64,000 nt of DNA from Acidilobaceae archaeon (lineage in GTDB: Archaea > Thermoproteota > Thermoprotei_A > Sulfolobales > Acidilobaceae): positions 512,001 to 576,000 of the forward strand of contig JAWAWX010000001.1 of assembly GCA_038897215.1 (NCBI GenBank), given 5' to 3'. The notes under the pieces are model-generated. The model had not been told where the DNA came from. It worked only from the letters and a program-made list of their open reading frames with translations, and did not search any database. Shown piece after piece: positions 42,827 through 63,685 of the stretch (position 1 is the first letter of the stretch; each line of letters opens with the position of its first letter). A program made the position numbers and the translations under genes.

Positions 42827-42925
42827 TGGAGCCGCCGGCGGGATTCGAACCCGCGACCACCGGCTTTCCCGCTGACCCGTTATCCGCTACGAGGCCGGCG
42901 CTCTACCGGGCTGAGCTACGGCGGC
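42827..42925 (-). tRNA. tRNA-Thr(CGT) with 22-nt intron at 37/38
   Basis: GCCGCCGTAGCTCAG...CCGGC-CT-CGT-A[gcggataacgggtcagcgggaa]A-GCCGG...GGTTCGAATCCC...CTCCA; the intron forms a BHB with central helix CTCG/CGGG. Confidence 0.95.
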
Positions 42926-49658: not shown

Positions 49659-51056
49659 TTAGTGAAAATCAACAACTCTTATTATATCCGAGTCTTCGAG
49701 TTTCTGGGCAGTCATGTATCTGTAGGATACCTCTTTGAGGTCTTGATTGCTCCCATAAATCATCACTGTGTGCAGTCTCGCTCTAGCTTTAGTTAGAGAG
49801 TTTCTCACAATATTCACGTTGATTCTATCCTCTCCATCAGATATGAGTATTATGTCGCTGACCCCTTGAGCTCTTCCACTCTTACTTATATCATTACATG
49901 CTGTCAACAACGCTCTCATTATGTCCGTGCCCCCTCCTGCTGCTACTCTCGCTAGGCTTGCGAGAGCATTAACGACCTCCGAAGCTCGCGGGTTTCTACT
50001 GACTTTGATCAAGCTGTAGACTGAAGAGTCAAAGTATCGCGCGTAGAAAGCTCTAGATTCCCCGATCGCTCTCTTCAGCAAAGCTACTGCTACTGCGCGA
50101 GCCCAGTCTATCTTCTCTCCAACCATGCTACCGCTCTTGTCTAGTAAGACGTAGATCGGTCCTTTCGAGACGTCTTCATGCTTCGAGTAGAGTAATAGCT
50201 TAGATTCGGCAAAAGCCACCATGAAGTACTCTGTTGGAAGCGCTAGCTGTGAGTAGTGAAGTCTCTCTAAGTCGCTTCCTACTTCTATCCCCTCGACCCA
50301 CCCCCTCCTCACTCTAATCTTCCTTCCTCTCGCTCCGGGGATGTCTAGACCCTCGATTTTCTCGAGTATCTTGGATACATCTGTGAGCCTAGAGAGCTCT
50401 AATATCTTCTCAGCAGTGTCCTCGAAGCTTAGAATAGAGCCTGTTCCAGCTAGTTTTGAGAAGAGCTCCGCCTTGATTCTCTTCGCTGTCTCGGCATCTC
50501 TCATCGCTTGGTCTAGCGCTTTATCGACCACCTCCTCGAAGTTGTCTACAGCCTCTTCCCCCGATTCGGCTTTCTCTGAGAGCTCTCTCCCGTAGGACTT
50601 GCTGCCTCTACACCCCCGTCTCTCCTCATCTGTCGACTCGTGTTCTAGCTCTTCACGACTGAGCATTGATGTTAGCTTCTCTAGTATAGATGCAGCTGCT
50701 ACGGTGCTAACAAGGCTATCGGCTACGGTATAGTTTCTGATATGGTGAAGCTTGGGGTTTTTGAGTAGTTGCGCGATTATAACATATCTCTCTGCATACT
50801 CGCTATCCGGCTTCTCTTCACTCACACCAGGGTAGTCGACGATCATGGGGATTGGCAGGTTTAAGAGGTAGAATATGTCTGTCGCCAGCTCTGGCCTTAA
50901 AAGCTTGCGATTGCTTTCAGGTTCTTCTCTCGAAAGCGGGTCTCCTCTGAGAGCTCTCTTTATCTCTAGAACGATCCGGATTATCCTCTCTCCTCTATAG
51001 ATTCTTAACTCGTCGAGGACCCCTACGCCAGCTATGACGCTCCTCTTTTGAGTCAA
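49659..51056 (-). CDS. VWA-domain protein (ViaA-like)
   Basis: GSDLERL, LLDKSGSM (MIDAS), GGTDI, ILISDGED; follows a MoxR ATPase. Confidence 0.88.
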   Translation of the reverse strand: MTQKRSVIAGVGVLDELRIYRGERIIRIVLEIKRALRGDPLSREEPESNRKLLRPELATDIFYLLNLPIPMIVDYPGVSEEKPDSEYAERYVIIAQLLKNPKLHHIRNYTVADSLVSTVAAASILEKLTSMLSREELEHESTDEERRGCRGSKSYGRELSEKAESGEEAVDNFEEVVDKALDQAMRDAETAKRIKAELFSKLAGTGSILSFEDTAEKILELSRLTDVSKILEKIEGLDIPGARGRKIRVRRGWVEGIEVGSDLERLHYSQLALPTEYFMVAFAESKLLLYSKHEDVSKGPIYVLLDKSGSMVGEKIDWARAVAVALLKRAIGESRAFYARYFDSSVYSLIKVSRNPRASEVVNALASLARVAAGGGTDIMRALLTACNDISKSGRAQGVSDIILISDGEDRINVNIVRNSLTKARARLHTVMIYGSNQDLKEVSYRYMTAQKLEDSDIIRVVDFH

Positions 51057-51067
51057 TCTTTCAACCT

Positions 51068-52207
51068 CTAGCTAAGCTTGGAGTTTATTACGTCGAGTAG
51101 CTCATCTATGTCGTCTAGAAGCTCTGAGTAGACTCTCCTTACCTCCTCGTCTTCCTCGAAGTCTTTGACTATGCTGACTATCCTATTCCTGGCGTTCCGT
51201 AAACTCCTGCTATAGTCTATGAGGCGAGGATCGTATGGAGGAAGGCTTCTTATCTTGCTCGCAGCGAGCTTTACGTTAGCCTTGATCTCGCTGAGCTCTC
51301 TCAATACTCTCTCCTTCGTCTTCAACTCGTCCATTAGTATTACTGAGACCTTTTCGAAATCCTCTATAGTCTTAGGAGCAACGTATTTGACGACAAGCAG
51401 GTCTTCTACAGTAGCCGTTGTCCTACCGTTGGCTATAGCGTGAGCGGCTATTACTTTCAATAGCTTCCCCTTCCTCCTATCAGACATATGTATGCCTTTT
51501 GATTCGAGAGCAAGCAATAGTTTGATGAGATGATTCTTGATGTTGTTCAGGTTGACTGATAGGACTAGCTTGTTTATGCTTCTTAAGTCTTCCATAGACA
51601 TTGTTGGTTTGGAGACGCTCACTTCCCCCCTCTCTATTTTCCAGCTCGCATCTAGGAGCCGAGGCCAGAGCTCTTGACTAAGAGGCTTCACGTAAGCTCT
51701 TAAGAGGAATCTATCGTAGAGAGCTTCGAGTTCGGGGTCCTCTGGCACTCTATTCGAGGCGCTAAAGAGACTCCATAGCTTTGCCTTTATCTCCGTGTAT
51801 CCATCGTATATCACTCTCTCCATCATCAAGCTCAGGAGACAGTTCAAGATGGCGCTGTTCGCGTTGAAGATCTCATCGAGGAAAGCGATCTCCGCCTCGG
51901 GCAGCTTATCCTTAGTGACTCTGACGTAGACTCCTCTCAATAAGGCGTTAACGTCGAGGGGGCCGAAGAGCTCACTCGGCTCAGTGTACTTCGTCAACAG
52001 GTATTTGAAGAATTTGGCGTTAAGAAGCTCTGCTGCTCTCCTGACTAGAGCGCTCTTAGCCGTGCCGGGCTCTCCGATCAGTATAGCGTGCTCTCCCGTG
52101 ATTAGAGCTAGAGTTGTTACGAGAGCTTCCTCCCGCCTTCCTACAAACGGGGCTTCGAGCTCGCTCAGAAACCTCTGGATCTTGGCTATAGCTGAGTCAA
52201 GAGACAT
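51068..52207 (-). CDS. MoxR/RavA-family AAA+ ATPase
   Basis: [45 protein letters not shown] at 52207; the ORF track starts at 52306. Confidence 0.9.
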
Positions 52208-52376
52208 CCCTGGGCTAGCTAAGCCTTCGGAGTCAATTCTCTCGCTATAGCTGAGTCTAAGAGGGTTCACGAAGCCTTTCTGGTTTAGTGGTAGAGGAGC
52301 TAGCACTAACCCACACCCAGCACTATTAACCTGATAGGGTTTGATGTCGGAGGAATTTTAATCTAACTCTCGGCTC

Positions 52377-53273
52377 TCAGTAGCCAGCCGGGTTCACAGC
52401 GATAAGTAGAGTTAGAGAGACTAGGAAGAGACGACAGAAGAGAGAGTTGTCTCTGAGAGTCTTTGATGAGATGTTGCGTCTCTCTCTAGTCAAGGACATC
52501 AATACTCTTAGAGCGTAGAAGGCGATAAGAGATACCGGTACGAGTATCAGCGGGCTTAATAGCTTTAGAATGATAGAGGATGCTAGAGAAACCGCTAAGA
52601 AGACCAGGATAGCGGCGTAACCAACCCATACTCTATCCCCTAGGATTACTGGGAGAGTTCTTCTACCGTACTTGGCGTCAGCCTCAGCATCTGGGATCTG
52701 GTTTACATAAAGGCTAGCTACAGAGAGCAATCCATAGATAGCTCCTATAGGTATGGCGGGAAGGTAGAGTTCTCGAGACGCTATGTAAGCACAACCCAGA
52801 AATACTAGCACTCCTTTAGCGAAGACTCCCAGCTCTCCTAACCCTACTCTGAGCAAGTACGGGTCGTATAGAATGATTATTAGTGCTCCTATTACCACGA
52901 AGAGGAATATCGTGAGCCCGTAGAGCAGACTAAAATAGAGCCCTATCGATGCCGCTATCACGAACGTTGCTATAGCTAAGAGTATGGCCTCTGCTAGCGA
53001 GAGCTTACTCTCAACTAGTAGCTTTGTGCCGCCACTATATGGAGTTCGAGAAGTCTCTCTATCCAGCCCACTGAGATGGTCTTGAATATCATTAATAGCG
53101 TTCACAGAGAGGTGAGCAATAGATACCCCCAATACAGCCAACAGAGACTCGAAAACCAGACACTCGCTCTCTCTACAAGCGAAGATCGCGCCACCTAGCC
53201 CCGCTAAGACTGTACTTAGAGAGGTCTGTGGTCTCAAGAAGCTCCAGTAAACTCTCAGCTTCTCTCTAATCAT
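52377..53273 (-). CDS. UbiA/MenA-family prenyltransferase
   Basis: LRPQT, NAINDIQD..SGLD, TPYSGG, LGELGV, NQIPDAEAD..GRRTL; multiple TM helices. Confidence 0.88.
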   Translation of the reverse strand: MIREKLRVYWSFLRPQTSLSTVLAGLGGAIFACRESECLVFESLLAVLGVSIAHLSVNAINDIQDHLSGLDRETSRTPYSGGTKLLVESKLSLAEAILLAIATFVIAASIGLYFSLLYGLTIFLFVVIGALIIILYDPYLLRVGLGELGVFAKGVLVFLGCAYIASRELYLPAIPIGAIYGLLSVASLYVNQIPDAEADAKYGRRTLPVILGDRVWVGYAAILVFLAVSLASSIILKLLSPLILVPVSLIAFYALRVLMSLTRERRNISSKTLRDNSLFCRLFLVSLTLLIAVNPAGY

Positions 53274-53311
53274 TCATGACCCTCGATTTCTTCTAGTATA
53301 AGCGCTTCCAC

Positions 53312-53325
53312 TTAAGCTTTTAAAC
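53312..53325 (+). promoter_or_regulatory. BRE/TATA promoter of the tRNA-Gln 3' half
   Basis: TTAAGCTTTTAAAC, ending about 26 nt before the leader at 53351; may also serve the divergent prenyltransferase gene. Confidence 0.6.
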
Positions 53326-53350
53326 GTCGACTCGTTGCTTCATCAAGATC

Positions 53351-53411
53351 GCGGGGCGCGGGGCGGCAGGGAGCCCCCGTGACCGGGGTTCGAATCCCCG
53401 CCCGGCTACCA
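53351..53411 (+). tRNA. 3' half of split tRNA-Gln (leader 53351-53373, exon 53374-53411)
   Basis: C-CCCCG-TGAC-CGGGG-TTCGAAT-CCCCG-CCCGGCT-A-CCA. No D arm or 5' acceptor strand upstream; the leader is complementary to the trailer at 61517-61534. Confidence 0.93.
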
Positions 53412-53421
53412 TAAAACTTGT

Positions 53422-54270
53422 TCACCAATACTCGACGAGCACTCTCTTGATTGAAGCTATCTGCTGTAAAGCGTCTCTTACCACTTTATTTGTTGAACTC
53501 TTTTCTACGATAATCACGCGGGAGGGCTCAGGATAGCTTCTCTCAAGCGCTTGAATCACTGTATTCTCGTTGATAGCTTCGCTTAGTTGATGCTTAGAGA
53601 TTATGTGTCCAAAGCATAGCTCTGTTTCGAGCATAGCTTTAGTGAATCTTCTGGGATAGTGTGGACCCCCGAGACCAACGGCCGGAGTACATGCTGGGAT
53701 ATTTTCCGAGTTGTTGACCACGTTGCTTACGGCTGTGACGAGAGCTAGAATTGCTCTAGAGTCTCTCCACTGCTTCTCGCAGCTACCGACTTCGATGAAG
53801 ACTAGAGGCTTGCTAGTCTCTGTCGGCCCGTGATGTGTAGCCTCTAGCGTTAACTCGTAGTCTTTCTCTAGCTTCATCTCCAGTGTTGCCTTAGAGTACT
53901 CGACTAGCAGAGCTTTCGCTAAAGCTGGGTATGAGACAGCGAGCTTGAAGGGCTTCCCTCCAGCTACAGTGCTTGTAGGGTTCCCGGTATGGTGAACACT
54001 AAGAGTGCCTCTACACTCTCGAGAAGCGTGACGAGAGAGAGCTATCACAGGTCTTAGCTCGCTTCTAGGACTCACGTCTAGAATATCTAGATTCAAGAGC
54101 TCTCCGGAATAGCCTGCTATCAATCCTCGCTCGTAAGAAAAACACTCTTCAGCATAGGGGCATCTCCTTGGCTTAGCTCTCAGCCGTTCTACCAGAGCCC
54201 TCGAGGCGAGAACACCAACAGGGTCGTCGAGAGAGTAGATTATGTCTATCTCCAAAAAGGCTTCACCCAA
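53422..54270 (-). CDS. dtdA: D-aminoacyl-tRNA deacylase (DTD2)
   Basis: LSRHAS, LSVHHTGN, LEATHHGPT, FIEVGS, GLGGPHY, GHIISKH. Confidence 0.92.
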   Translation of the reverse strand: MGEAFLEIDIIYSLDDPVGVLASRALVERLRAKPRRCPYAEECFSYERGLIAGYSGELLNLDILDVSPRSELRPVIALSRHASRECRGTLSVHHTGNPTSTVAGGKPFKLAVSYPALAKALLVEYSKATLEMKLEKDYELTLEATHHGPTETSKPLVFIEVGSCEKQWRDSRAILALVTAVSNVVNNSENIPACTPAVGLGGPHYPRRFTKAMLETELCFGHIISKHQLSEAINENTVIQALERSYPEPSRVIIVEKSSTNKVVRDALQQIASIKRVLVEYW

Positions 54271-54784
54271 TCTTGTTTTTGGCGATAGCGAGTAGGAAGA
54301 GTGTCTTCAAGTCTCTAATCCCTCCGTCTCTCGCTATAGCTAGCGCTTCGTCTAAGCTCATGTATACAACTTCAATTACCTCATGTGGCTCGAGTTCTCG
54401 GGCTACCGGCTCGGGGTCCCAGGCGATAAAGAGGAACATGTATTCTGTTGAGTAGCCGGGTGATACGAATCCCTCGCCTACGAGCTCAAAGCTTGAAGCC
54501 TTCAGCCCTGCTTCTTCTCTTAGCTCTCTAGTAGCTGTTACGAGAGGACTCTCTCCCTCTTTCAGAGTCCCTGCTGGAGCTTCTAGAAGCCACTCGCGAA
54601 CAGCCGGCCTATACTGTTTGACTAAGGCTACCCTCTTCTCTCTCCTCCAGAGAGGGAGGATGGCGACACTCTTCGGGAAGACTACTCTATCGACCAAGAT
54701 GTTGATACCGTTAGGTAAGACTTCCTCATAGCACTCTAGCAGAACTCTTCTGCATCTAAAGCTACGAACCTCTCGGGAAACCAA
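54263..54784 (-). CDS. NUDIX hydrolase (ADP-ribose pyrophosphatase-like)
   Basis: KQYRP, EAPAGTLKEGESP..TATRELREEAG, SPGYSTE. Confidence 0.92.
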   Translation of the reverse strand: MVSREVRSFRCRRVLLECYEEVLPNGINILVDRVVFPKSVAILPLWRREKRVALVKQYRPAVREWLLEAPAGTLKEGESPLVTATRELREEAGLKASSFELVGEGFVSPGYSTEYMFLFIAWDPEPVARELEPHEVIEVVYMSLDEALAIARDGGIRDLKTLFLLAIAKNKIG

Positions 54785-54890
54785 TTAGGTCACCGACGCC
54801 GCTGGGTTTCTCGAGTCGCTTATAGGAACTCTAGAAGCTCCGGTCTCGATTACTCTCAGCCCTGAAGAGCCATGGCTAAGATTGAGGTCA

Positions 54891-55451
54891 CTACGTGCAC
54901 GCTATGGCAGACATTCTCAAACACGTGGATAGATTGGAGCTAGTGATCTCGAGTTCTCTAGCTAACTCTGGTAGAATAGTCTTGAAGAGGTGCAGGTTTT
55001 CTAGCAAAGAGTCTCTCATAGCTAGATCTACTTCTACCTTTCTCGATTCGCTGTACGCTACTAGCTTGACTCTACTACCCTCAAGCTCTAGAGCGTAGGC
55101 TCTCGTAGCTACTCTGATAGAGTTCTCTTTAAGAGCGATTACTAGAGGCCTGTCTGTAGACCTGAAGACCGTGAACTCTCCCGGTCTCTCTGCAACCCTA
55201 TAGTTATAACATCCGGTACTGCAGAGCTTCTCGGCCCCTACGCTAATACAGGAGCCTTTCCCTCTAACTGAGCATGAAGACTTCCCAGCGATGTCTCCCA
55301 CTAATTTCACTAACCTCATGAGCTCCGATAGAAGGGAGATCGTTACTAGAGCCTGAGATCCCTTCCTGGGAGTCTTGGAGATCAGAGACTCTAGTAGCTC
55401 CCGCTCTCTGGAAATGACGCTATACTCCATAGCTTTAACCCACCCACACAT
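54891..55451 (-). CDS. Hypothetical protein
   Basis: 186-aa ORF, co-oriented with its neighbours. Confidence 0.7.
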   Translation of the reverse strand: MCGWVKAMEYSVISRERELLESLISKTPRKGSQALVTISLLSELMRLVKLVGDIAGKSSCSVRGKGSCISVGAEKLCSTGCYNYRVAERPGEFTVFRSTDRPLVIALKENSIRVATRAYALELEGSRVKLVAYSESRKVEVDLAMRDSLLENLHLFKTILPELARELEITSSNLSTCLRMSAIACT

Positions 55452-55486
55452 AAGCTAGAGCATTTATTTTTGTATACCTCCCCTAG

Positions 55487-55808
55487 CTAAGTTCTACTCT
55501 CATACATCTCGCTGACTCTCCTGAGTCTCTCTAACTCGAGCTCTCTCTTCTTTCGCCGCCTAGAGCCTATAGAGCAGGCTTTACAGACTCTACGCACGCT
55601 ATCTACTTGCACCGAGCACTCAGAGCAAACCAGGCTCCCGCAGGAGATACAGGAAGCTACTGAGAGTCTTTCACCACATACTCTGCAAAGAGCTGCAGAG
55701 CACACAGAGCACACTTCGAGACTTGTAATGTGTCTTCTGCAAACTCTTCTACCACACTTAGCGCAGACGCTTTCCGCCTCGCGGTCACAGAAAGTGGCAA
55801 GAATGCAT
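55487..55808 (-). CDS. Cys-rich multi-zinc-finger protein with apparent +1 frameshift at codon 6
   Basis: Multiple CxxC motifs. ATG at 55808 gives MHSCHF, and the +1 frame continues CDREAESVCAKCGRRVCRRH... Confidence 0.7.
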
Positions 55809-55813
55809 ATGGG

Positions 55814-56401
55814 TCAGCCTAGTTCCAAGCTCTCAGCTAGAGGCTTCTCAGCTCTCGCCAGCCTCCCCGTCTGCTCTCTCTCTACTAGCTCGCATGTAAT
55901 CTCGAGGTCGCTCTCTGAAGTTCTGAGAATACAGTGAGCTCTGGAGATTGAAATCACGCCTACTAGAGGAGATAGTATGAAGTTAGCTGAAACCTCGTTT
56001 TCAGCAGTAATCCTAACCCTCTGAGTCTTGATCTTCCTGAATCCTGGGATCTTGACTATGACTGAATCAGTCTCTATGTCTGACTCGAGCTTGACCGTCA
56101 CTATATCTCCTCTCATTTCTATTAACTCGTTCTGCTTGATACTCATTCGAGCCCCCTGAGAGTCGACCTCGAACTTGTAGTCCGGCACGTAGATCTTCAA
56201 GACGTCCTCCATAGTGGAGTCGATACGCGACTCTACGGGAACTAAGGTCTCCATTCTTAGCTTTAATGGAGTCATTTCAATCAATATGGTCGACGCGCCA
56301 ACAATAAACACGTGGCTAGTCTCGTAGACTCTCCCCCCTACTCTCACTCTACTGCCATCGACAACCACACTAATGTATCTATCTGAGTGAAGCATCGTCA
56401 T
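55814..56401 (-). CDS. Hypothetical beta-rich protein
   Basis: 195-aa ORF, first gene of a tightly packed run. Confidence 0.7.
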   Translation of the reverse strand: MTMLHSDRYISVVVDGSRVRVGGRVYETSHVFIVGASTILIEMTPLKLRMETLVPVESRIDSTMEDVLKIYVPDYKFEVDSQGARMSIKQNELIEMRGDIVTVKLESDIETDSVIVKIPGFRKIKTQRVRITAENEVSANFILSPLVGVISISRAHCILRTSESDLEITCELVEREQTGRLARAEKPLAESLELG

Positions 56402-56547
56402 CTAATAAGCACCATCTCCCTCTGAGCAGTTCTCTATCCAAAGCTAATTACAGTTATGCATAGCTTTAACATTATTAAGCTTTTAGCGTCATCACATCCC
56501 AAGACCTGCTATTCGCAACGACATACTATCCGCTCTATATGTCTTCC

Positions 56548-56991
56548 TCATTTAGGAATACGGTGTCTATATCCTACCCCGCTACCTCTAAGCTTATCTC
56601 TTCTAGACTTAAACCCGACCCCGGGTCCCGACTTCTTCTTAGTACTAGTAGGTCTTCTTTCGGGAATCTCTTCAGCTATGGGGAATCCCGCCTCTTCGAG
56701 TTTCTTTACTGAGCTAGAGCTACCCGCATTGACCTGAAGCTCTCCTCTATAGCTCGTAATCCAGCAATTCGTTATCTCAACTACCTCTCCTTTTCTCAAA
56801 CTACCCGCAAGCCTTCCCCAAAGCGTGAGCTTAACCCTACCGGTCTCATCGCCAACCACGGCTTCGCTTAAAGTTCTAAGACCTCTTCTTGTCTCGACAA
56901 CTTTCTTCTCCCACACCTCTAAGACACGAACTCTGAGAGTGACGCCTTCAAGCCCTTCTTTCAAATCACAAATCTTAAACACAACACTCAT
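56548..56991 (-). CDS. ssb: Crenarchaeal single-stranded DNA-binding protein (single OB fold)
   Basis: KICDLK, VTLRVRVLE, EAVVGDETGRVKLTLWG, GEVVEITN, YRGELQVNAG. Confidence 0.93.
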   Translation of the reverse strand: MSVVFKICDLKEGLEGVTLRVRVLEVWEKKVVETRRGLRTLSEAVVGDETGRVKLTLWGRLAGSLRKGEVVEITNCWITSYRGELQVNAGSSSSVKKLEEAGFPIAEEIPERRPTSTKKKSGPGVGFKSRRDKLRGSGVGYRHRIPK

Positions 56992-57474
56992 ATATTACGC
57001 ACTCTCATACACGCAATCTCTCCACTTGAGGCCTAGGTTTAAAAAAGAACATGAAGTCTTGTCTCCACCCATTCCTCGACAGACGGTTCTTCGTAGCTCT
57101 TCATACTCTCAGCTACTGTCTTCTAGCAGTCTCTTCTCGAGGCAACAACAGTACTTCCCGGCTTCACCATAAGGAACTCTACAACTCTCCTCTCTCACGA
57201 GCTATGATTAGATGAACGTGTAACGTCACTACATACCATAGTACTAAGAACATAGAAGCGATATCGTAGACTATTGAGAACAAGGATAGAACCCTCTACT
57301 GTTAATAATGGCTCTAGCGTTCTCAAAGCCTGAAACAGAAGGAAACCGTATCGTGTAGTGAGCGCTCTTGAGACTCAGGAGTTAGAAGTGAGGAGGCATA
57401 GAGACAACCCTACTTGACTCGAGCCGAGCGTCTAGCGCTACTGTAGCAGAGACTTTTCCCCATGGAACGTTGCT

Positions 57475-57759
57475 TTATGTTGGCTCTGTGGTACGTCCTT
57501 CGATGTGATACTTCAACACATTCAATATAGTGTTTGCTAAGTGCTGCGGCTTTGTGTACCACTTATCATAAGAGTATTTTTTGCCTTGGAAGCTTATCTC
57601 TACAAAGTCTTTAACGTCCCTGATGCTCATGAAGGGCTTTCCTCCTCTGTTGAGTTCGAATGTGTCTTTGTCTTTTCGTAGTAGCTTTATCTCATATTTT
57701 TCTAGCTCGGGTTTGATTGCATCAAATACCTGTGTTAGATAGTCGCTCAACTCCATCAC
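57475..57759 (-). CDS. Hypothetical protein
   Basis: 94-aa ORF with GGGGTG RBS and an upstream TTTATA box. Confidence 0.7.
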   Translation of the reverse strand: MMELSDYLTQVFDAIKPELEKYEIKLLRKDKDTFELNRGGKPFMSIRDVKDFVEISFQGKKYSYDKWYTKPQHLANTILNVLKYHIEGRTTEPT

Positions 57760-58056
57760 CCCGGAGCTATGCTTTGTTAGCTTACAGAGATATAAATCTT
57801 CATGAGGCTATCGAGACTTTGAGGTTAGGCTTTAGCTTCTACAAGGCACAATCCTGCAGTCACATAACGAGGCTCTAGAGTTTTAGCTTAGCGTGAGAGC
57901 GCGAGAGTCTCCTCTCATTAACTAAGCTAAGAGCTACGGGTGAAGCTTGCTGTTTCTGGCGAGAGCTAGAGGGATGAGTCTCTCCTAGTTATGCGCTTCG
58001 AGCTACAGATTAGTATAAAAGCTGAGCTTCATATCCGAGAGAGGGGCTCGAAGAGC

Positions 58057-58653
58057 ATGAGTGAGGAGAGAGGGCTGAGTTTTGAGCCTAGTGAGCCGTT
58101 GCTTTTCGGCAAGTGGAGCTTCGTGGGAGTCGAGATCAGAGACCCGAGCTTAAAGAAGTATATCTGCCTTAAGCCTGTCTACCTTCCTCATAGTGGAGGA
58201 AGACATGAGCATAGAAGGTTCGGTAAAGCCAATGTCAGTATAGTAGAGCGATTGATTAACAAGCTCATGTATCCTGGTAAAAATGGAGGCAAGAAGCACC
58301 TGGCCTATAACATAGTGAAGACTGCTTTCGATATAATACATTACGAGACTCGAGAGAACCCCCTCCAAGTCTTGGTGAGAGCTATCGAGAACTCTGCTCC
58401 TCGAGAAGAGACCACGAGGATAATGTATGGAGGTATAACATACCACGTCTCAGTAGACGTGTCGCCCCAAAGACGAGTAGACTTAGCACTTAGATTCATA
58501 AGCGAGGGAGCTAGACTCTGTGCTTTCAGAAACCCTAAGCCGATAGAAGAGTGCTTAGCTGAAGAGATCATAAAGGCTTCGAGAAACTCTCCAGAGAGCT
58601 ATGCTGTTAGACAGAGGGAGGAGATAGAAAGGATAGCTCTCAGCTCGAGATAA
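58057..58653 (+). CDS. rps7: 30S ribosomal protein S7 (uS7)
   Basis: [57 protein letters not shown]; ATG at 58057. Confidence 0.98.
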
Positions 58654-58905
58654 CACGGCTATGCTCGAACACAGCAAGGAGAGAAGAGGCTCGCTTACTT
58701 CATGACAGACTTCTAGCAACAACTTGCATCTCTAGCGTAAGTTCTTGCCGACTCTCATCGATAGTCTCAGTTTTAAACTACGAGAAGAAAGCGAGACCGA
58801 TCTTTCTGCTAGACTCTACGAGATGCACGAGTCTAAATTGGAGAAAGCTATAGGGACGTTGTCTCGAGACAACCATGCTCACTATTCTCTAAGATAGAGG
58901 TTATA

Positions 58906-60102
58906 TTGTGGAAAGTTCTAGAGGAGGAGGATAAACTAGAATATTCTCACTCGCGTGAAGATATAAGTGGTAATGCGTGCTGGGAAGATATGGAAGGGAG
59001 TTCGCCTGTGCCTCGGAGACCTCTCGTAGTGGTAGTCGACATAGACGATGATATCTTTGAAGTGACGGGGTCTAGTGTTATAGCTGGGTCTGAGAACGTT
59101 CTCTCGGCTGCTCTCGCCTACGCTAGAGCTAGACCCGAAGATGCAGACCTTAACGCTATATTCTACGGTCTCAGCCTCTATTGGCGATTCCGGGAGAGAA
59201 AGCTTGACCCAGAGATAGCCATAGTTGGAGGGCATAGAAGCGACGAGGTTGAAGCACAGCTGAGACTCAAGGAGAGAGTGAAGAAGCTAGTCGAGGAGCT
59301 GGGTGGTAACGTAGAACTCTACATAGTTGGAGACGGGCTAGACGAGGTTATGATAGGAGAGATTCTGAGCGATATAGCGCCAATAGCTGTGTCTAAGAGA
59401 ATAGTGGTCGAGCAACACCCGGGAATAGAGACTAGCTACGTTCTATTATCGAGGTACATCAGGAAAGCTGTCGAAGACCCTAGACTTGCTAGATACTCTC
59501 TCGGCATACCCGGCGTTCTACTCGCTCTACTAGGGGTTCTCGCCATCTTCGATATGCTAGACCTAGCGATAAAGATATCTCTAACGATATTAGGGATAGC
59601 CATGATAGTCAAAGGATTTAATCTAGAGGACTACGCTACACTACTCCTAACTAGAGCCTTGAATTACGTTAGAGAACCTCCCTACGTTAGGCTAGCAGCG
59701 TTGATAATATTTGTGGCGCTCGTGAGCGTGAGCATATACGTTCCTCTTGATGCTTCGAGGAGAGAAGGGACTACAGCTGCTCTCCTAGCTCTCCTAGGCT
59801 TCTCAGCTCCCCTAACCTTCATAGGACTCTCTTTAGCTTTACTCATAGGGAACGTTCTCCGCGAGATTCTGCATGGAGAATTCAGGTCGATAGACTCTCT
59901 AGTCCTCTCCGTAACTCTACTACTGATAGCCATAGGGTTCTATAGCCTAGGCTCAACGCTCGAGGAGTTCGTAGCAGTAACGGGAGACCTTAGCTCTGAC
60001 ATCTTGATAAAAGCTATAGTAGAGAGCAAGTTCATCATATTCTTAGCCCTAGGAGGACTCACTGCCGGCGTTCTTGAAGTAGTGTTGAGGAAGCTGGTTT
60101 AG
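58906..60102 (+). CDS. DUF373 family membrane protein (start probably near 58990)
   Basis: VVDIDDD, PEDADLNA, DGLDE, IVVEQH..IETSY, LGIPG, KGFNLE; C-terminal TM helices. Confidence 0.85.
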   Translation: MWKVLEEEDKLEYSHSREDISGNACWEDMEGSSPVPRRPLVVVVDIDDDIFEVTGSSVIAGSENVLSAALAYARARPEDADLNAIFYGLSLYWRFRERKLDPEIAIVGGHRSDEVEAQLRLKERVKKLVEELGGNVELYIVGDGLDEVMIGEILSDIAPIAVSKRIVVEQHPGIETSYVLLSRYIRKAVEDPRLARYSLGIPGVLLALLGVLAIFDMLDLAIKISLTILGIAMIVKGFNLEDYATLLLTRALNYVREPPYVRLAALIIFVALVSVSIYVPLDASRREGTTAALLALLGFSAPLTFIGLSLALLIGNVLREILHGEFRSIDSLVLSVTLLLIAIGFYSLGSTLEEFVAVTGDLSSDILIKAIVESKFIIFLALGGLTAGVLEVVLRKLV

Positions 60103-60482
60103 TTTGCTCAGCATCTTTGCTCGAGTTCTAGCCAACAAGCAAACTTCAAGACTTCTAGAATATCAAATCCATGTAGGAAGCCAGGAACACTAATCAGAGG
60201 TTTTAAGAACTGTCTCCCGTTCTGGGTCTCTCCGAGTTGGCCTAGAGCGGGTCATTGCATCTTTCTCAAGTTCTCTTTCCGCTGTCTTCTATGAGTCTCG
60301 CGAACTCGAGGTGCCTCGTAGACTTTACGAGGTCGGCAAGCGCGTACGCCTGATCGTAGCGAGAAGTCTAGGAAGCAGGAGAGAACCTCGATAAACCTTA
60401 ATCCACAGAATAGCTAACCGGTTCTTCCTCGCTCTCGGGTTATCTGATATAAGGCGGGCTAGTTCGCTAGCCGTGAGAGGGA

Positions 60483-61091
60483 GTGGGTTTGAGTTTAAGA
60501 CATGTAGGTATAATACCTGACGGTAATCGCCGATGGGCTAAACGCCATGGTACGAGTCTTCGAGAGGCGTATTTGAGAGGATTGCAAGTCTTCGAGATGA
60601 TAGCTCTAAGTCTGTTCGAGCGGGGCATCCCATTGCTTACTGTATACGCTCTTAGCTATGAGAACTGCATATATCGCGATAGGAGAGAGTTAGAGGTATT
60701 GGAGAACGTGCTAGAGCTCGGTCTCGATATCCTCAAGAGCTGGGTTGAGAAAAACATCGTAGCTGTTAGATTCTATGGCGAGAAGAATCTACTATCTGAG
60801 AAGCTGAGAAGCAGGGTAGAAGAGCTACTCGACTCTTCTTGGTCATCTTTTAGGCTAAACGTAGGTCTTTGCTATAAGCATGGAGTGGACCAGAACAACG
60901 TAAGTCAACTACACCCAATAGATTTGATAATAAGAACAGGAGGCTATTCTAGGTTAAGCGGCTTCTTTCCTAGTCTATCTAGTTATGCTGAGATATACGT
61001 GACTGAGAAGCTCTGGCCTGATTTTACTGAGGGAGACTTAGAGGAGGCGATTACATGGTTTATGAGGCAGAGGAGAAATTTTGGTAAGTAG
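60483..61091 (+). CDS. uppS: cis-Prenyltransferase (undecaprenyl diphosphate synthase family)
   Basis: HVGIIPDGNRRWA, YALSYEN, IDLIIRTGG..RLSGF, LWPDF, RRNFGK. Confidence 0.9.
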   Translation: MGLSLRHVGIIPDGNRRWAKRHGTSLREAYLRGLQVFEMIALSLFERGIPLLTVYALSYENCIYRDRRELEVLENVLELGLDILKSWVEKNIVAVRFYGEKNLLSEKLRSRVEELLDSSWSSFRLNVGLCYKHGVDQNNVSQLHPIDLIIRTGGYSRLSGFFPSLSSYAEIYVTEKLWPDFTEGDLEEAITWFMRQRRNFGK

Positions 61092-61438
61092 AACCTGCGG
61101 AGAGGCGCATTTCGCAAATCCTACGCGAGATACCCCCGATGATTAACGTAGAGCACTCGCTTACGATGCTCTAAGCATCGTTCTACTCAACTCGCGTAGA
61201 CTTAGGTGTTGGCGTGAACTCGTGAGCGATAATCGAGTTCAAGAACGCAAAATACTCATCTATATTTAGCTTTAGAGAGCAAAGAATAGCAACCTATAGC
61301 TTCGAGACATCTCCTGAACAATATCGCTGAGTCTTGCGACTACTTTGCGGGAACAGCGGGAAAGGAGGATAGTTTCATGACATTTCCTTGAGAACACAGT
61401 CTCCTCGAGAGACGCTCATTAGAAGTAGTCAATAGCCT

Positions 61439-61452
61439 TTAACCTTTTAAGC
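61439..61452 (+). promoter_or_regulatory. BRE/TATA promoter of the tRNA-Gln 5' half
   Basis: TTAACCTTTTAAGC, ending about 26 nt before tRNA position 1 (61478). Confidence 0.65.
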
Positions 61453-61477
61453 ACTCTTCAAGTAGTATCGAGATGGT

Positions 61478-61534
61478 AGCCGGGTCGTCTAGCGGCCCAG
61501 GATGCGGGGCTTTGGAGCCGGCCCCGCGCCCCGC
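61478..61534 (+). tRNA. 5' half of split tRNA-Gln(TTG) (exon 61478-61515, trailer 61516-61534)
   Basis: AGCCGGG-TC-GTCT-AGCGGCCCA-GGAT-G-CGGGG-CT-TTG-G, then a GC-rich trailer in place of a T arm. The acceptor and anticodon strands pair exactly with the exon at 53374-53411. Confidence 0.93.
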
Positions 61535-61537
61535 TCT

Positions 61538-61768
61538 CTAGGTCTTCTTGTAGAGTCTCCTAGCTATGATGAAGTAGATAAGCAGATAGGAGAGAACAGG
61601 AGAAACCATCACTAGAGCCAGCCCGAGTATGGCGATAGCCAAAGAGTCTATTTTGCTAGCTATGATTGCTAGAAGAGTTCCCATCATAGCTATAGATAGA
61701 GTCATTGATACTTTTAGCAGTACAATCGCTAAGAACAACGGATCCCTTCGCTTTCCCCGCTTCTGCAA
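61538..61768 (-). CDS. Small hypothetical membrane protein (start uncertain)
   Basis: Two hydrophobic helices and a basic C-terminus; overlaps the end of the CinA-like gene. Confidence 0.45.
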   Translation of the reverse strand: MQKRGKRRDPLFLAIVLLKVSMTLSIAMMGTLLAIIASKIDSLAIAILGLALVMVSPVLSYLLIYFIIARRLYKKT

Positions 61769-62522
61769 CTACCGTCTCCACGGCTTTCCTAGCTACCTCT
61801 AGGTATTTCTCTACTTCTGTGGGATCGCATACTGTTGAGAGCTCTACTACGACTGAGGGCTCGGCGTACTCTAGACCTCGAGGATATGATTTGATGAAAA
61901 ATAATCCCTTTAGAGATTCTCTTAGTTCTAAGAGAGATTGAGCGATGTCTGCTTCGAGGACATCTCTAATCTCAATTCTGCACTCAACAATAGCTGAGGG
62001 CCTACCCGCTCGTGCTACGAGAAGTTGGACTAGCTTCTCAAAGATAGCTCTGACTTCTCCAGGCGGTCCTGGGAGAGCTATGACTAGTTTGTCTCCATGA
62101 GTTAATACGATTCCGGGAGCTGCCCCCACGGGGTTCTCCACGATCTGAGCGCCCTCAGGAGCCATCGCTAACTTGATTCTACTCTCTCTCAACTCTATGC
62201 CGTATTTCTTACAGTATCTCTCAACAAAACTGAGAGCGTCCGAGTGGAGTACTAGCTTCTTCCCCGTAGCTCTAGCTATAGCCTCTAGTGTGACATCGTC
62301 GGGCCCCAAGCCTAGCCCGCCAGTAGTGACTACGACCTCTGCTCGTGCTAGAGCTCTGCGAAGCTCTTCCTCAATATCATCTATTGAGTCGGGGACAGTG
62401 ACGACCCTCGAGACCGAGAATCCCAGCTTTGTGAGTCTATCGGCGAGCCAGGCGGCGTTAGTGTTTACTACTCGCCCTCTCAGAAGCTCTGTCCCCACTG
62501 ATATTATCCAAGCTTCTCTCAA
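61656..62522 (-). CDS. CinA-like molybdopterin-binding domain protein
   Basis: SVGTELLRGRVVNTNA, VTTGGLG..PDDVT, NPVGAAPG, LPGPPGE. Confidence 0.88.
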   Translation of the reverse strand: MREAWIISVGTELLRGRVVNTNAAWLADRLTKLGFSVSRVVTVPDSIDDIEEELRRALARAEVVVTTGGLGLGPDDVTLEAIARATGKKLVLHSDALSFVERYCKKYGIELRESRIKLAMAPEGAQIVENPVGAAPGIVLTHGDKLVIALPGPPGEVRAIFEKLVQLLVARAGRPSAIVECRIEIRDVLEADIAQSLLELRESLKGLFFIKSYPRGLEYAEPSVVVELSTVCDPTEVEKYLEVARKAVETVVAEAGKAKGSVVLSDCTAKSINDSIYSYDGNSSSNHS

Positions 62523-63685
62523 GCTCTTCCTCCTCTACTCTCGCTCAATACCTCCTCGTATACCCTGACTATCTGCTCAGACACTATGCTCCAGGAGTAC
62601 CTCTCTTCAGCCACCTCTCTAGCTCTCCTACCCATCTCTCTCCTCAACGCCTCGTCTTGAAGGAGAGTGACCACTGCTTCAGCTAGCTCTCTAGCAGAGC
62701 CTGGCGGCACGAGAAGCCCCGTCTTCCTCTCCTCAACTACCTCCTTAAGCCCTCCGACGCTTGTCGCGATTACAGGCCTCCCCGTTGCCATAGCCTCGAT
62801 CGCCGTTATTCCGAAGCACTCGTTGTAAAGACTTGGAACAACGACTATCTTCGCGCTCCTCAGAATCCTGATTTTCTCGCTCTCTGAAAGCCAGCCTACT
62901 AGCTTGACTCTATCGGAGACTTTGAGAATCCTAGAGAGAACGTTGGCTACGGTCTTCATGTAGCCCTCGCCGACTATCACTATCTCTAAGTCCTTTATCT
63001 CTCTCATTATTAAAGGCGCCGCATTGATAAGCACGTGGACACCCTTTCTGTGAACAAGCCTCCCGACAAAGACAATCCTGTTTTCTTCGGGCTCTCTCTC
63101 TGGCGGGCTATACTTCTCGGTGTCGACTCCATTAGGGATGACTACGTGCCTAAACCTAGCATCTCTCCCTACTAGGTTCTCGACGAATTTCCGCGCTTCT
63201 TGACTCACAGATATCACTGCCTGAGCATACCTCAAGTAGTACCTAGCTGGAGTCAGGTAAGACAGCGTGCTCCATATGCTCGAATCATAGAAGAAAAATA
63301 GCGTGTGATTAGTTATAACTCTAGACACTCCTAGGTCGTGAGCATACTTCAAAGACATGAGCGGCAATAATGTGAAAATATGGTGTGAGTGGATTAAGTC
63401 GAACTTTCCGCGGAGCAAGGTCTCCTTAATGCTGGAAACGTTAGGCGGGATTATCAGAGATTCTAGAGGTATAACCGAGTCTACTGTGAAGCTGGGAACA
63501 GATGGGAGAGTGTCGACATCTCTAAAGCCTATACGACGCGAGATTATAGAGACCTCTAAGCCACGCTTAGCTAGCCAGAGAGCCAGGTATCTGACGTGAC
63601 TCTGGACCCCTCCGGTACTCGATGGATGCCAGTCTATTACCAAACCTACCCTCAAGGCTATTCCCGGGAGAAACTGTGAGTGCAA
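62519..63685 (-). CDS. Glycosyltransferase family 4
   Basis: GGVQSHV, HSHH, IPNGVD, FVGRLVHRKG, ECFGITAIEAMATG, YSW. Confidence 0.92.
   Translation of the reverse strand: MHSQFLPGIALRVGLVIDWHPSSTGGVQSHVRYLALWLAKRGLEVSIISRRIGFRDVDTLPSVPSFTVDSVIPLESLIIPPNVSSIKETLLRGKFDLIHSHHIFTLLPLMSLKYAHDLGVSRVITNHTLFFFYDSSIWSTLSYLTPARYYLRYAQAVISVSQEARKFVENLVGRDARFRHVVIPNGVDTEKYSPPEREPEENRIVFVGRLVHRKGVHVLINAAPLIMREIKDLEIVIVGEGYMKTVANVLSRILKVSDRVKLVGWLSESEKIRILRSAKIVVVPSLYNECFGITAIEAMATGRPVIATSVGGLKEVVEERKTGLLVPPGSARELAEAVVTLLQDEALRREMGRRAREVAEERYSWSIVSEQIVRVYEEVLSESRGGRA

Follow-up and report, generated by a model that had tools for sequence, protein, structure and literature searches.

The stretch analysed here (the window) is 64,000 nt of the genome of a hot-spring Acidilobaceae archaeon, C1:512001–576000 of a single contig, C1, of 1,159,524 bp. 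It contains two tRNA halves on the forward strand, 8.1 kb apart, which together make up a tRNA-Gln with the anticodon UUG (Table 1). Both lie where a reading made from the sequence alone (the sequence-only reading) had placed them. Computed as one molecule, the joined exons give a 76-nt cloverleaf with a 7/7 acceptor stem including A1–U72, a D stem of four pairs (two of them G–U), 5/5 anticodon and T stems, A73 and an encoded CCA. The product differs from the intact tRNA-Gln(CUG) of the same genome (C1:1038059–1038134) at a single position, 34, where it carries U34; its 3′ exon is identical to the 3′ half of that gene.

Each half is flanked by a strand complementary to that of its partner. The trailer of the 5′ half (61517–61534) and the leader of the 3′ half (53351–53367) form 17 G–C pairs (4 + 13) with one bulged G, which recovers the count given in the sequence-only reading. 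At −45.1 kcal/mol, the duplex has no equal in strength among 20,000 random genome windows (best −35.0, mean −10.6), and its 13-mer core is present in the genome at these two sites only (0.09 expected). A bulge–helix–bulge (BHB) of 3-4-3 geometry is found at 37/38, with bulges GG/A and AG/C (slashes mark the cuts, as previously proposed) and all four pairs of its central helix formed (C32–G, U33·G, U34·G and U35–A). On co-folding, the dimer of the halves is ~16–21 kcal/mol better than the monomers at 37–85 °C.

Turning to expression, a promoter matrix was built from the regions upstream of the 45 contiguous tRNA genes of the genome, in which the modal motif distance is 40 nt. The motif of the 5′ half scores above 62% of the genome's tRNA promoters, a value reached by 0.7% of random windows; that of the 3′ half scores above 84% and is matched by 0.2%. 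At the level of motifs, each half appears to have its own promoter, the one for the 3′ half lying within a divergent intergenic region common to a UbiA-family gene.

Table 1. Features of the split tRNA-Gln(UUG) locus, in window coordinates (BRE, B recognition element).
Feature	Coordinates	Strand	Evidence or remark
tRNA-Gln(UUG) 5′ exon, positions 1–37, anticodon UUG	61478..61515	+	Same in sister genome G001 and in independent assembly L204
5′-half trailer: bulge A (61516), then 18-nt G-C-rich pairing strand	61516..61534	+	Pairing analysis
3′-half leader: 17-nt pairing strand 53351–53367, central-helix strand AGGG 53368–53371, bulge AG 53372–53373	53351..53373	+	
tRNA-Gln 3′ exon, positions 38–76 including CCA	53374..53411	+	Same in G001 and in L201
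BRE/TATA-like promoter of 5′ half; motif start 40 nt upstream of position 1	61438..61451	+	Matrix score 9.5
BRE/TATA-like promoter of 3′ half, 40 nt upstream of leader duplex	53311..53324	+	Matrix score 11.4
dtdA (D-aminoacyl-tRNA deacylase), converging with 3′ half; also its neighbour in G001	53422..54270	−	PF04414, E 1e-57; synteny
UbiA-family prenyltransferase, divergent from 3′ half; same neighbour in G001	52377..53273	−	PF01040; synteny

Independent assemblies and a sister species

The layout of the halves is reproduced by three independent assemblies. GenBank assemblies L201, which runs through the 3′ half, and L204, which runs through the 5′ half, match at 99.99–100% with the same flanks, and a Logan unitig (L202) spans 53385–61507 without mismatch. 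A misassembly at the G-C-rich inverted repeat had been named in the sequence-only reading as a way in which it could fail. Misassembly there or at the tRNA-Gln repeat draws some support from the exons, which repeat the tRNA-Gln(CUG) gene, and from the unitig, which ends exactly inside both halves. However, L201 and L204 cross each half into unchanged flanks, the unitig confirms the interval, and the gene is also split in a second species. Misassembly is already largely refuted, and we give it next to no credence.

The second species is a sister genome of the same genus (G001; Acidilobaceae, JAWBBK01) whose RpoB is 88% identical; the closest relative of the window's rps7 product is likewise 88% identical and comes from an Acidilobaceae metagenome-assembled genome (MAG), JAWBBK010000001.1. 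In G001 both exons are identical to those in the window and the 3′ half sits between the same UbiA and dtdA genes, whereas the 5′ half lies 4.85 kb from it, on the opposite strand and among other genes. The trailer and leader sequences differ from those in the window but remain complementary (15 bp, −34 kcal/mol), with one two-sided change in the duplex from C–G to U–A, and the central-helix strand is GGAG rather than AGGG, with all four pairs kept. The trailer from the window reaches −44 on pairing with its own leader, compared with −26 for the G001 leader. Because the exons are the same, the flanks have diverged yet pair, and the orientation differs, the split predates the divergence of the two species, the halves are under selection for pairing, and their order is incidental. 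The "permuted order" emphasized in the sequence-only reading consequently carries no meaning.

The sister genome also bears on the possibility that the halves belong to one cis transcript, either an 8-kb permuted precursor or an intron spanning the circle. In the window they share a strand and the 3′ half leads, an arrangement also known from permuted genes in Thermofilum pendens, but archaeal permuted genes have spacers of 1–7 nt and one promoter (PMC3218864). Here the spacer is long, two promoters are predicted, genes on both strands lie between the halves, and G001 has one half on each strand. A single cis transcript is therefore very improbable.

The intervening genes, correctly named in part by the sequence-only reading (dtdA, ssb, rps7 and uppS, on both strands), are rps7, ssb, dtdA, a Nudix hydrolase gene, a DUF373 gene and a uppS-type prenyltransferase gene; the G+C content of the 8-kb interval is 47%, compared with 48–49% in its flanks. 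They matter for a further explanation, in which the halves are attL/attR scars or pseudogene debris of a mobile element that entered the anticodon loop, with another tRNA reading CAA. Archaeal tRNA genes are commonly integration sites (PMC3218864, PMC3293823), and the identity of the 3′ half to that of the intact tRNA-Gln(CUG) would suit such an event. Against it, the interval holds housekeeping genes at background G+C, the sole tyrosine-recombinase match in the genome is ~130 kb away, the exons are unchanged between species while their flanks co-vary, and no tRNA-Gln 5′ half was found in the viral contigs searched. Neither an integrase with foreign DNA between the fragments nor a restored full tRNA was found, and the genome holds no replacement UUG gene. 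We regard scars or debris as unlikely in the extreme, if slightly less so than the other alternatives considered. Beyond the interval, a gene pair encoding a MoxR/RavA-type AAA ATPase and a von Willebrand factor A (VWA)-domain protein adjoins the UbiA gene (window 49659–52306, −) and is syntenic in G001.

Genome tRNA set and the case for trans-splicing

The contig ends overlap by 127 nt, and the genome is therefore probably circular. Gln(UUG) alone is missing among its 45 contiguous tRNA genes from the usual archaeal set of 46, a count that includes a by-eye reading of mis-called intron-bearing genes (Thr-CGU, Thr-UGU, Trp, Met and two Pro). As anticipated by the sequence-only reading, no other tRNA-Gln(UUG) was found in the circular contig by ARAGORN or by whole-genome T-arm, mismatch and D-arm scans. 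At a relaxed threshold ARAGORN returned 481 mostly spurious calls, with no credible Gln(TTG) among the matches listed. The genes for tRNA-Lys(CTT), as that reading had noted, and tRNA-Asp(GUC) are intact. Its further expectation that standard annotation overlooks the gene was also borne out: ARAGORN and Rfam miss both halves, and Rfam gave only a chance miRNA match in 52000–63000.

Other tRNA genes of this genome are also misread by ARAGORN. The gene at window 42827–42925 (−) is called tRNA-Tyr or tRNA-Ser and is by sequence a tRNA-Thr(CGU) with an intron after position 37. Genes for tRNA-Thr(UGU) (C1:484591–484691, −), tRNA-Trp(CCA) (795988–796089, −) and tRNA-Pro(CGG) (412641–412744, −), which have non-canonical introns in the D arm or anticodon stem, are partly mis-called.

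Long open reading frames (ORFs), delimited mechanically and so giving approximate counts, contain ~990 CAA codons compared with 2,840 CAG codons. An anticodon with C34 cannot read CAA by standard wobble rules, and the spliced product would be the cell's only reader of CAA codons. Alternatively, the halves could be inert or accessory and CAA could be read by tRNA-Gln(CUG) after C34-to-U editing. The two isoacceptors do differ at position 34 only, and C-to-U editing of tRNA reportedly occurs in archaea at position 8 (Methanopyrus). Editing would nonetheless leave the kept promoters, the BHB and the covarying duplex unexplained, and Fervidicoccus fontis, described below, has both Gln isoacceptors as halves only. 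We consider this explanation highly unlikely.

The enzymes needed for splicing are encoded in the genome: a catalytic EndA subunit at C1:1116594 and a structural subunit at C1:582250 (two PF01974 genes with frames of 183 and 187 aa), and RtcB at C1:226663. The structural-subunit gene (L204:10289–10798) happens to lie ~6 kb past the end of the window and ~9 kb from the 5′ half, probably by coincidence.

Together, the lack of an intact tRNA-Gln(UUG), the two promoters, the canonical BHB, the splicing enzymes, the independent assemblies, and the conservation with covariation support a split tRNA gene, and we hold with high confidence that the locus is a genuine and very probably functional split tRNA-Gln(UUG) gene. 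Every testable feature of archaeal split tRNAs is present, and all tests run support the trans-splicing put forward in the sequence-only reading. We propose that each half is transcribed from its own promoter and that the trailer of the 5′ half anneals to the leader of the 3′ half through the 17 G–C pairs. This duplex, with the acceptor and anticodon stems, would set up the predicted BHB at 37/38, where the two-subunit crenarchaeal splicing endonuclease would cut after G37 and before C38. RtcB would then ligate the exons into one tRNA. The assignment of EndA and RtcB to these halves follows the precedent of Nanoarchaeum equitans and Aeropyrum pernix.

Several points weigh against this interpretation. 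Genome completeness by markers is 89.7%, although the contig closes as a circle. Two of the central-helix pairs of the BHB are G–U wobbles, and covariation in this lineage rests on two species. The unconstrained minimum-free-energy (MFE) co-fold retains the long duplex and the acceptor stem, bearing out that part of the co-folding suggested by the sequence-only reading, but lacks the exact BHB; the cloverleaf with BHB is at −73.8 kcal/mol, compared with −85.1 kcal/mol for the MFE structure (37 °C). The intact mature tRNA-Gln sequence misfolds likewise in the MFE model, and tRNA folds are poorly captured by such energy models.

Split and intron-bearing tRNA-Gln genes across the order

The sequence-only reading had suggested searching related genomes with each half, and this search revealed the split in the sister species and a wider recurrence. 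We surveyed 256 genomes of the order that were at least 80% complete, using exact patterns, which miss variants such as U32 or C33. Among them, 80 match an intronless Gln(UUG), 77 a gene with a short 37/38 intron, and 196 a UUG 5′ half. Those genomes that had a 5′ half without either contiguous form were taken further; many are fragmented MAGs, and kin are not independent. Variants of tRNA-Gln(UUG) in the family (L146–L150) have C33 for U33 in two genera, whose genes carry short introns, and, in two others with intronless genes, U32 for C32. In JGI metagenome contigs, the 5′-half-plus-trailer motif had no exact match.

Four further arrangements emerged. First, four genomes (G183, G086, G039 and G117; loci L018, L021, L022 and L127) have adjacent Gln(UUG) halves with spacers of 145–175 nt and with TATA-like boxes ahead of the 3′ exon, an arrangement that recalls the tRNA-Asp gene of A. 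pernix. Second, inserts of 650–750 nt at 37/38 of Gln(UUG) carry an antisense LAGLIDADG endonuclease gene (PF14528, PF05204) in G006, G181, G182, G076, G070 and G066. The last of these is Pyrodictium abyssi (L142, C1:1414762–1415565), in which the intron is 727 nt long and the endonuclease copy is frameshifted. Other such inserts in tRNA-Gln(UUG) are at L010, L125, L141, L205–L217 and L242; ARAGORN mis-calls endonuclease-bearing tRNA-Gln genes as Leu, Pro or Stop. All six close endonuclease homologues whose context was looked up lie at the same tRNA-Gln(UUG) site, as do those at further metagenome loci. Two weaker, more distant homologues lie in tRNA-Gln(CUG), at L244 (G041) and L245 (G185), with inserts of ~760 and 1,180 nt.

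Third, fully separated Gln halves are present in 17 genomes, this one (G000) included, which fall into four clades. G182 was rejected as a far-split case and left out of this count, its endonuclease intron being broken across two contigs. Fourth, and within the 17, five genomes (G034, G044, G064, G087 and G228) have two 5′ halves, UUG and CUG, with a single 3′ half, which a three-mismatch search upheld in four of the five. Among them is the cultured F. fontis (G034), with a complete chromosome of 1,319,206 bp, on whose minus strand the UUG 5′ half lies at 963,128, the CUG 5′ half at 102,158 and the shared 3′ half at ~1,009,084 (L180, L184 and L165). In G054 both isoacceptors are again split, each with its own 3′ half and complementary leader (L138 with L168; L196 with L169). 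G073 (contig C33, L197:2420) has a second 3′ half of tRNA-Gln, whose leader is richer in A-T. For the genome studied here, service of the 3′ half to a CUG 5′ half as well was rejected, as tRNA-Gln(CUG) has an unbroken gene of its own without an intron and only one 5′ half exists. The full BHB is retained, despite differing flanks, at each of the 35 tRNA-Gln junctions examined, whether split or with a long insert, and the cognate partner was the best of all leaders in 23 of the 35.

In an RpoB tree (60 hand-picked genomes, FastTree, 1,125 columns), the four clades with separated halves are G000 + G001, sister to genus g7, all six sampled members of which are intact (support 1.0); G069 + G087, sister to an intact genus (support 1.0); G228 + G229; and the Fervidicoccus family. 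Endonuclease introns are spread over six lineages. Because the tree uses one gene and our own choice of taxa and has weak deep nodes, it shows patchiness and not a count of events. Split forms next to intact sister clades favour a late, repeated origin; the pattern is most simply read as repeated late origin or as lateral spread of an intron. A single genus combines three states, namely the endonuclease intron of G182, the 145-nt spacer of G183 and the short intron of G009. The intron termini of G182 and G183 are similar.

For this locus, we envisage that an intron at 37/38 acquired an internal promoter and that ordinary inversions then parted the halves. This would have happened in an ancestor common to this species and its sister, and on separate occasions in other clades of the order. 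More broadly, we suggest tentatively, and with slightly more doubt than belief, that 37/38 of tRNA-Gln is a recurrent splitting hotspot in the groups formerly called Desulfurococcales, Acidilobales and Fervidicoccales, and that the agent behind it is a mobile intron encoding a LAGLIDADG endonuclease in antisense. A promoter region of the intron just ahead of the 3′ exon would allow independent transcription of that exon; loss of the endonuclease gene would leave promoter-bearing spacers of 145–175 nt; and rearrangement would scatter the halves, as at this locus, until finally one 3′ half served both isoacceptors, as in F. fontis. The recurrence of the split is shown by the survey, while the causal role given to the endonuclease is conjectural. 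No LAGLIDADG ORF or remnant lies between or beside the exons here: none was found in G000 or G001, nor in 300 nt of flank, and when the short spacers and the surroundings of the separated halves in 15 genomes were searched for remnants, nothing convincing came up (best E 0.07; one 34-nt DNA match of the G039 spacer to the G182 intron, E 2e-6). Any connection of the mobile intron with this locus is for that reason purely inferential.

Relation to known split tRNAs

The closest likeness is to the split tRNA-Asp(GUC) of A. pernix and Thermosphaera aggregans, from the same archaeal branch, which has the same 37/38 junction, a canonical hBHBh′ motif, a G-C-rich duplex of ~14 bp and its own 3′-half promoter. 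We take A. pernix to belong to the same GTDB family as this genome. The Asp halves are adjacent (~160 nt), whereas the Gln halves here are 8.1 kb apart and of another isotype. In Staphylothermus marinus and S. hellenicus, the tRNA-Lys(CUU) halves lie kilobases apart on one strand with the 3′ half first, as here (PMC3218864 Table 1), and there too a pair of sister species shares the split, with a duplex change that preserves pairing. Its junction, however, is at 30/31 and its synteny is fully kept, in contrast to the relocated and inverted 5′ half seen here between sisters.

N. equitans splits the same isoacceptor, Gln(UUG), but at 32/33 (PMC3218864 Table 1), so that novelty extends to the crenarchaeal 37/38 form, which appears undescribed, and not to a split tRNA-Gln(UUG) as such. 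The shared 3′ half of its tRNA-Glu(CUC/UUC) (PMC3218864 Table 1; PMC4390854) recurs as a design, one 3′ half with two 5′ halves, in the Gln genes of F. fontis and four further genomes. N. equitans is a reduced symbiont of another phylum; the present genome keeps an intact CUG gene and need not share its 3′ half. The split and tri-split tRNA-Gly, -Ala and -Glu of Caldivirga maquilingensis, a free-living crenarchaeon, likewise involve BHB-guided trans-splicing, and their leaders resemble introns of relatives (PMC4033280, PMC4390854), but they are of other isotypes, in Thermoproteales, and come in up to three pieces. As regards origin only, BHB introns of rRNA genes with LAGLIDADG endonucleases (I-DmoI type; PMC4496867 for 16S) parallel the LAGLIDADG-bearing BHB introns of relatives at the same tRNA-Gln site; those in tRNA-Gln are antisense, and none is present at this locus.

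Reviews list split tRNAs in seven archaeal genomes (PMC4033280), and an early versus late origin of such genes is still debated. A search of largely open-access papers, which covered neither the F. fontis genome paper nor the tRNA databases, found no crenarchaeal split tRNA-Gln, nothing on split tRNAs of Fervidicoccus and no paper on endonuclease-bearing archaeal tRNA introns. The split is not peculiar to this genome: it is older than the separation from the sister species, and split tRNA-Gln turns up again in at least four of the order's clades.

The locus contributes an isotype and a junction hitherto unreported in crenarchaea and closes a gap in annotation, and the 17 genomes with separated Gln halves more than double the seven-genome list. 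A supposedly rare split thus recurs, with the same tRNA broken at the same spot in several lineages. The cultured F. fontis, with its shared 3′ half, and P. abyssi, with its endonuclease intron, make the split and its origin testable. If the hotspot route is true, it would provide a stepwise, testable and late origin of split tRNA genes.

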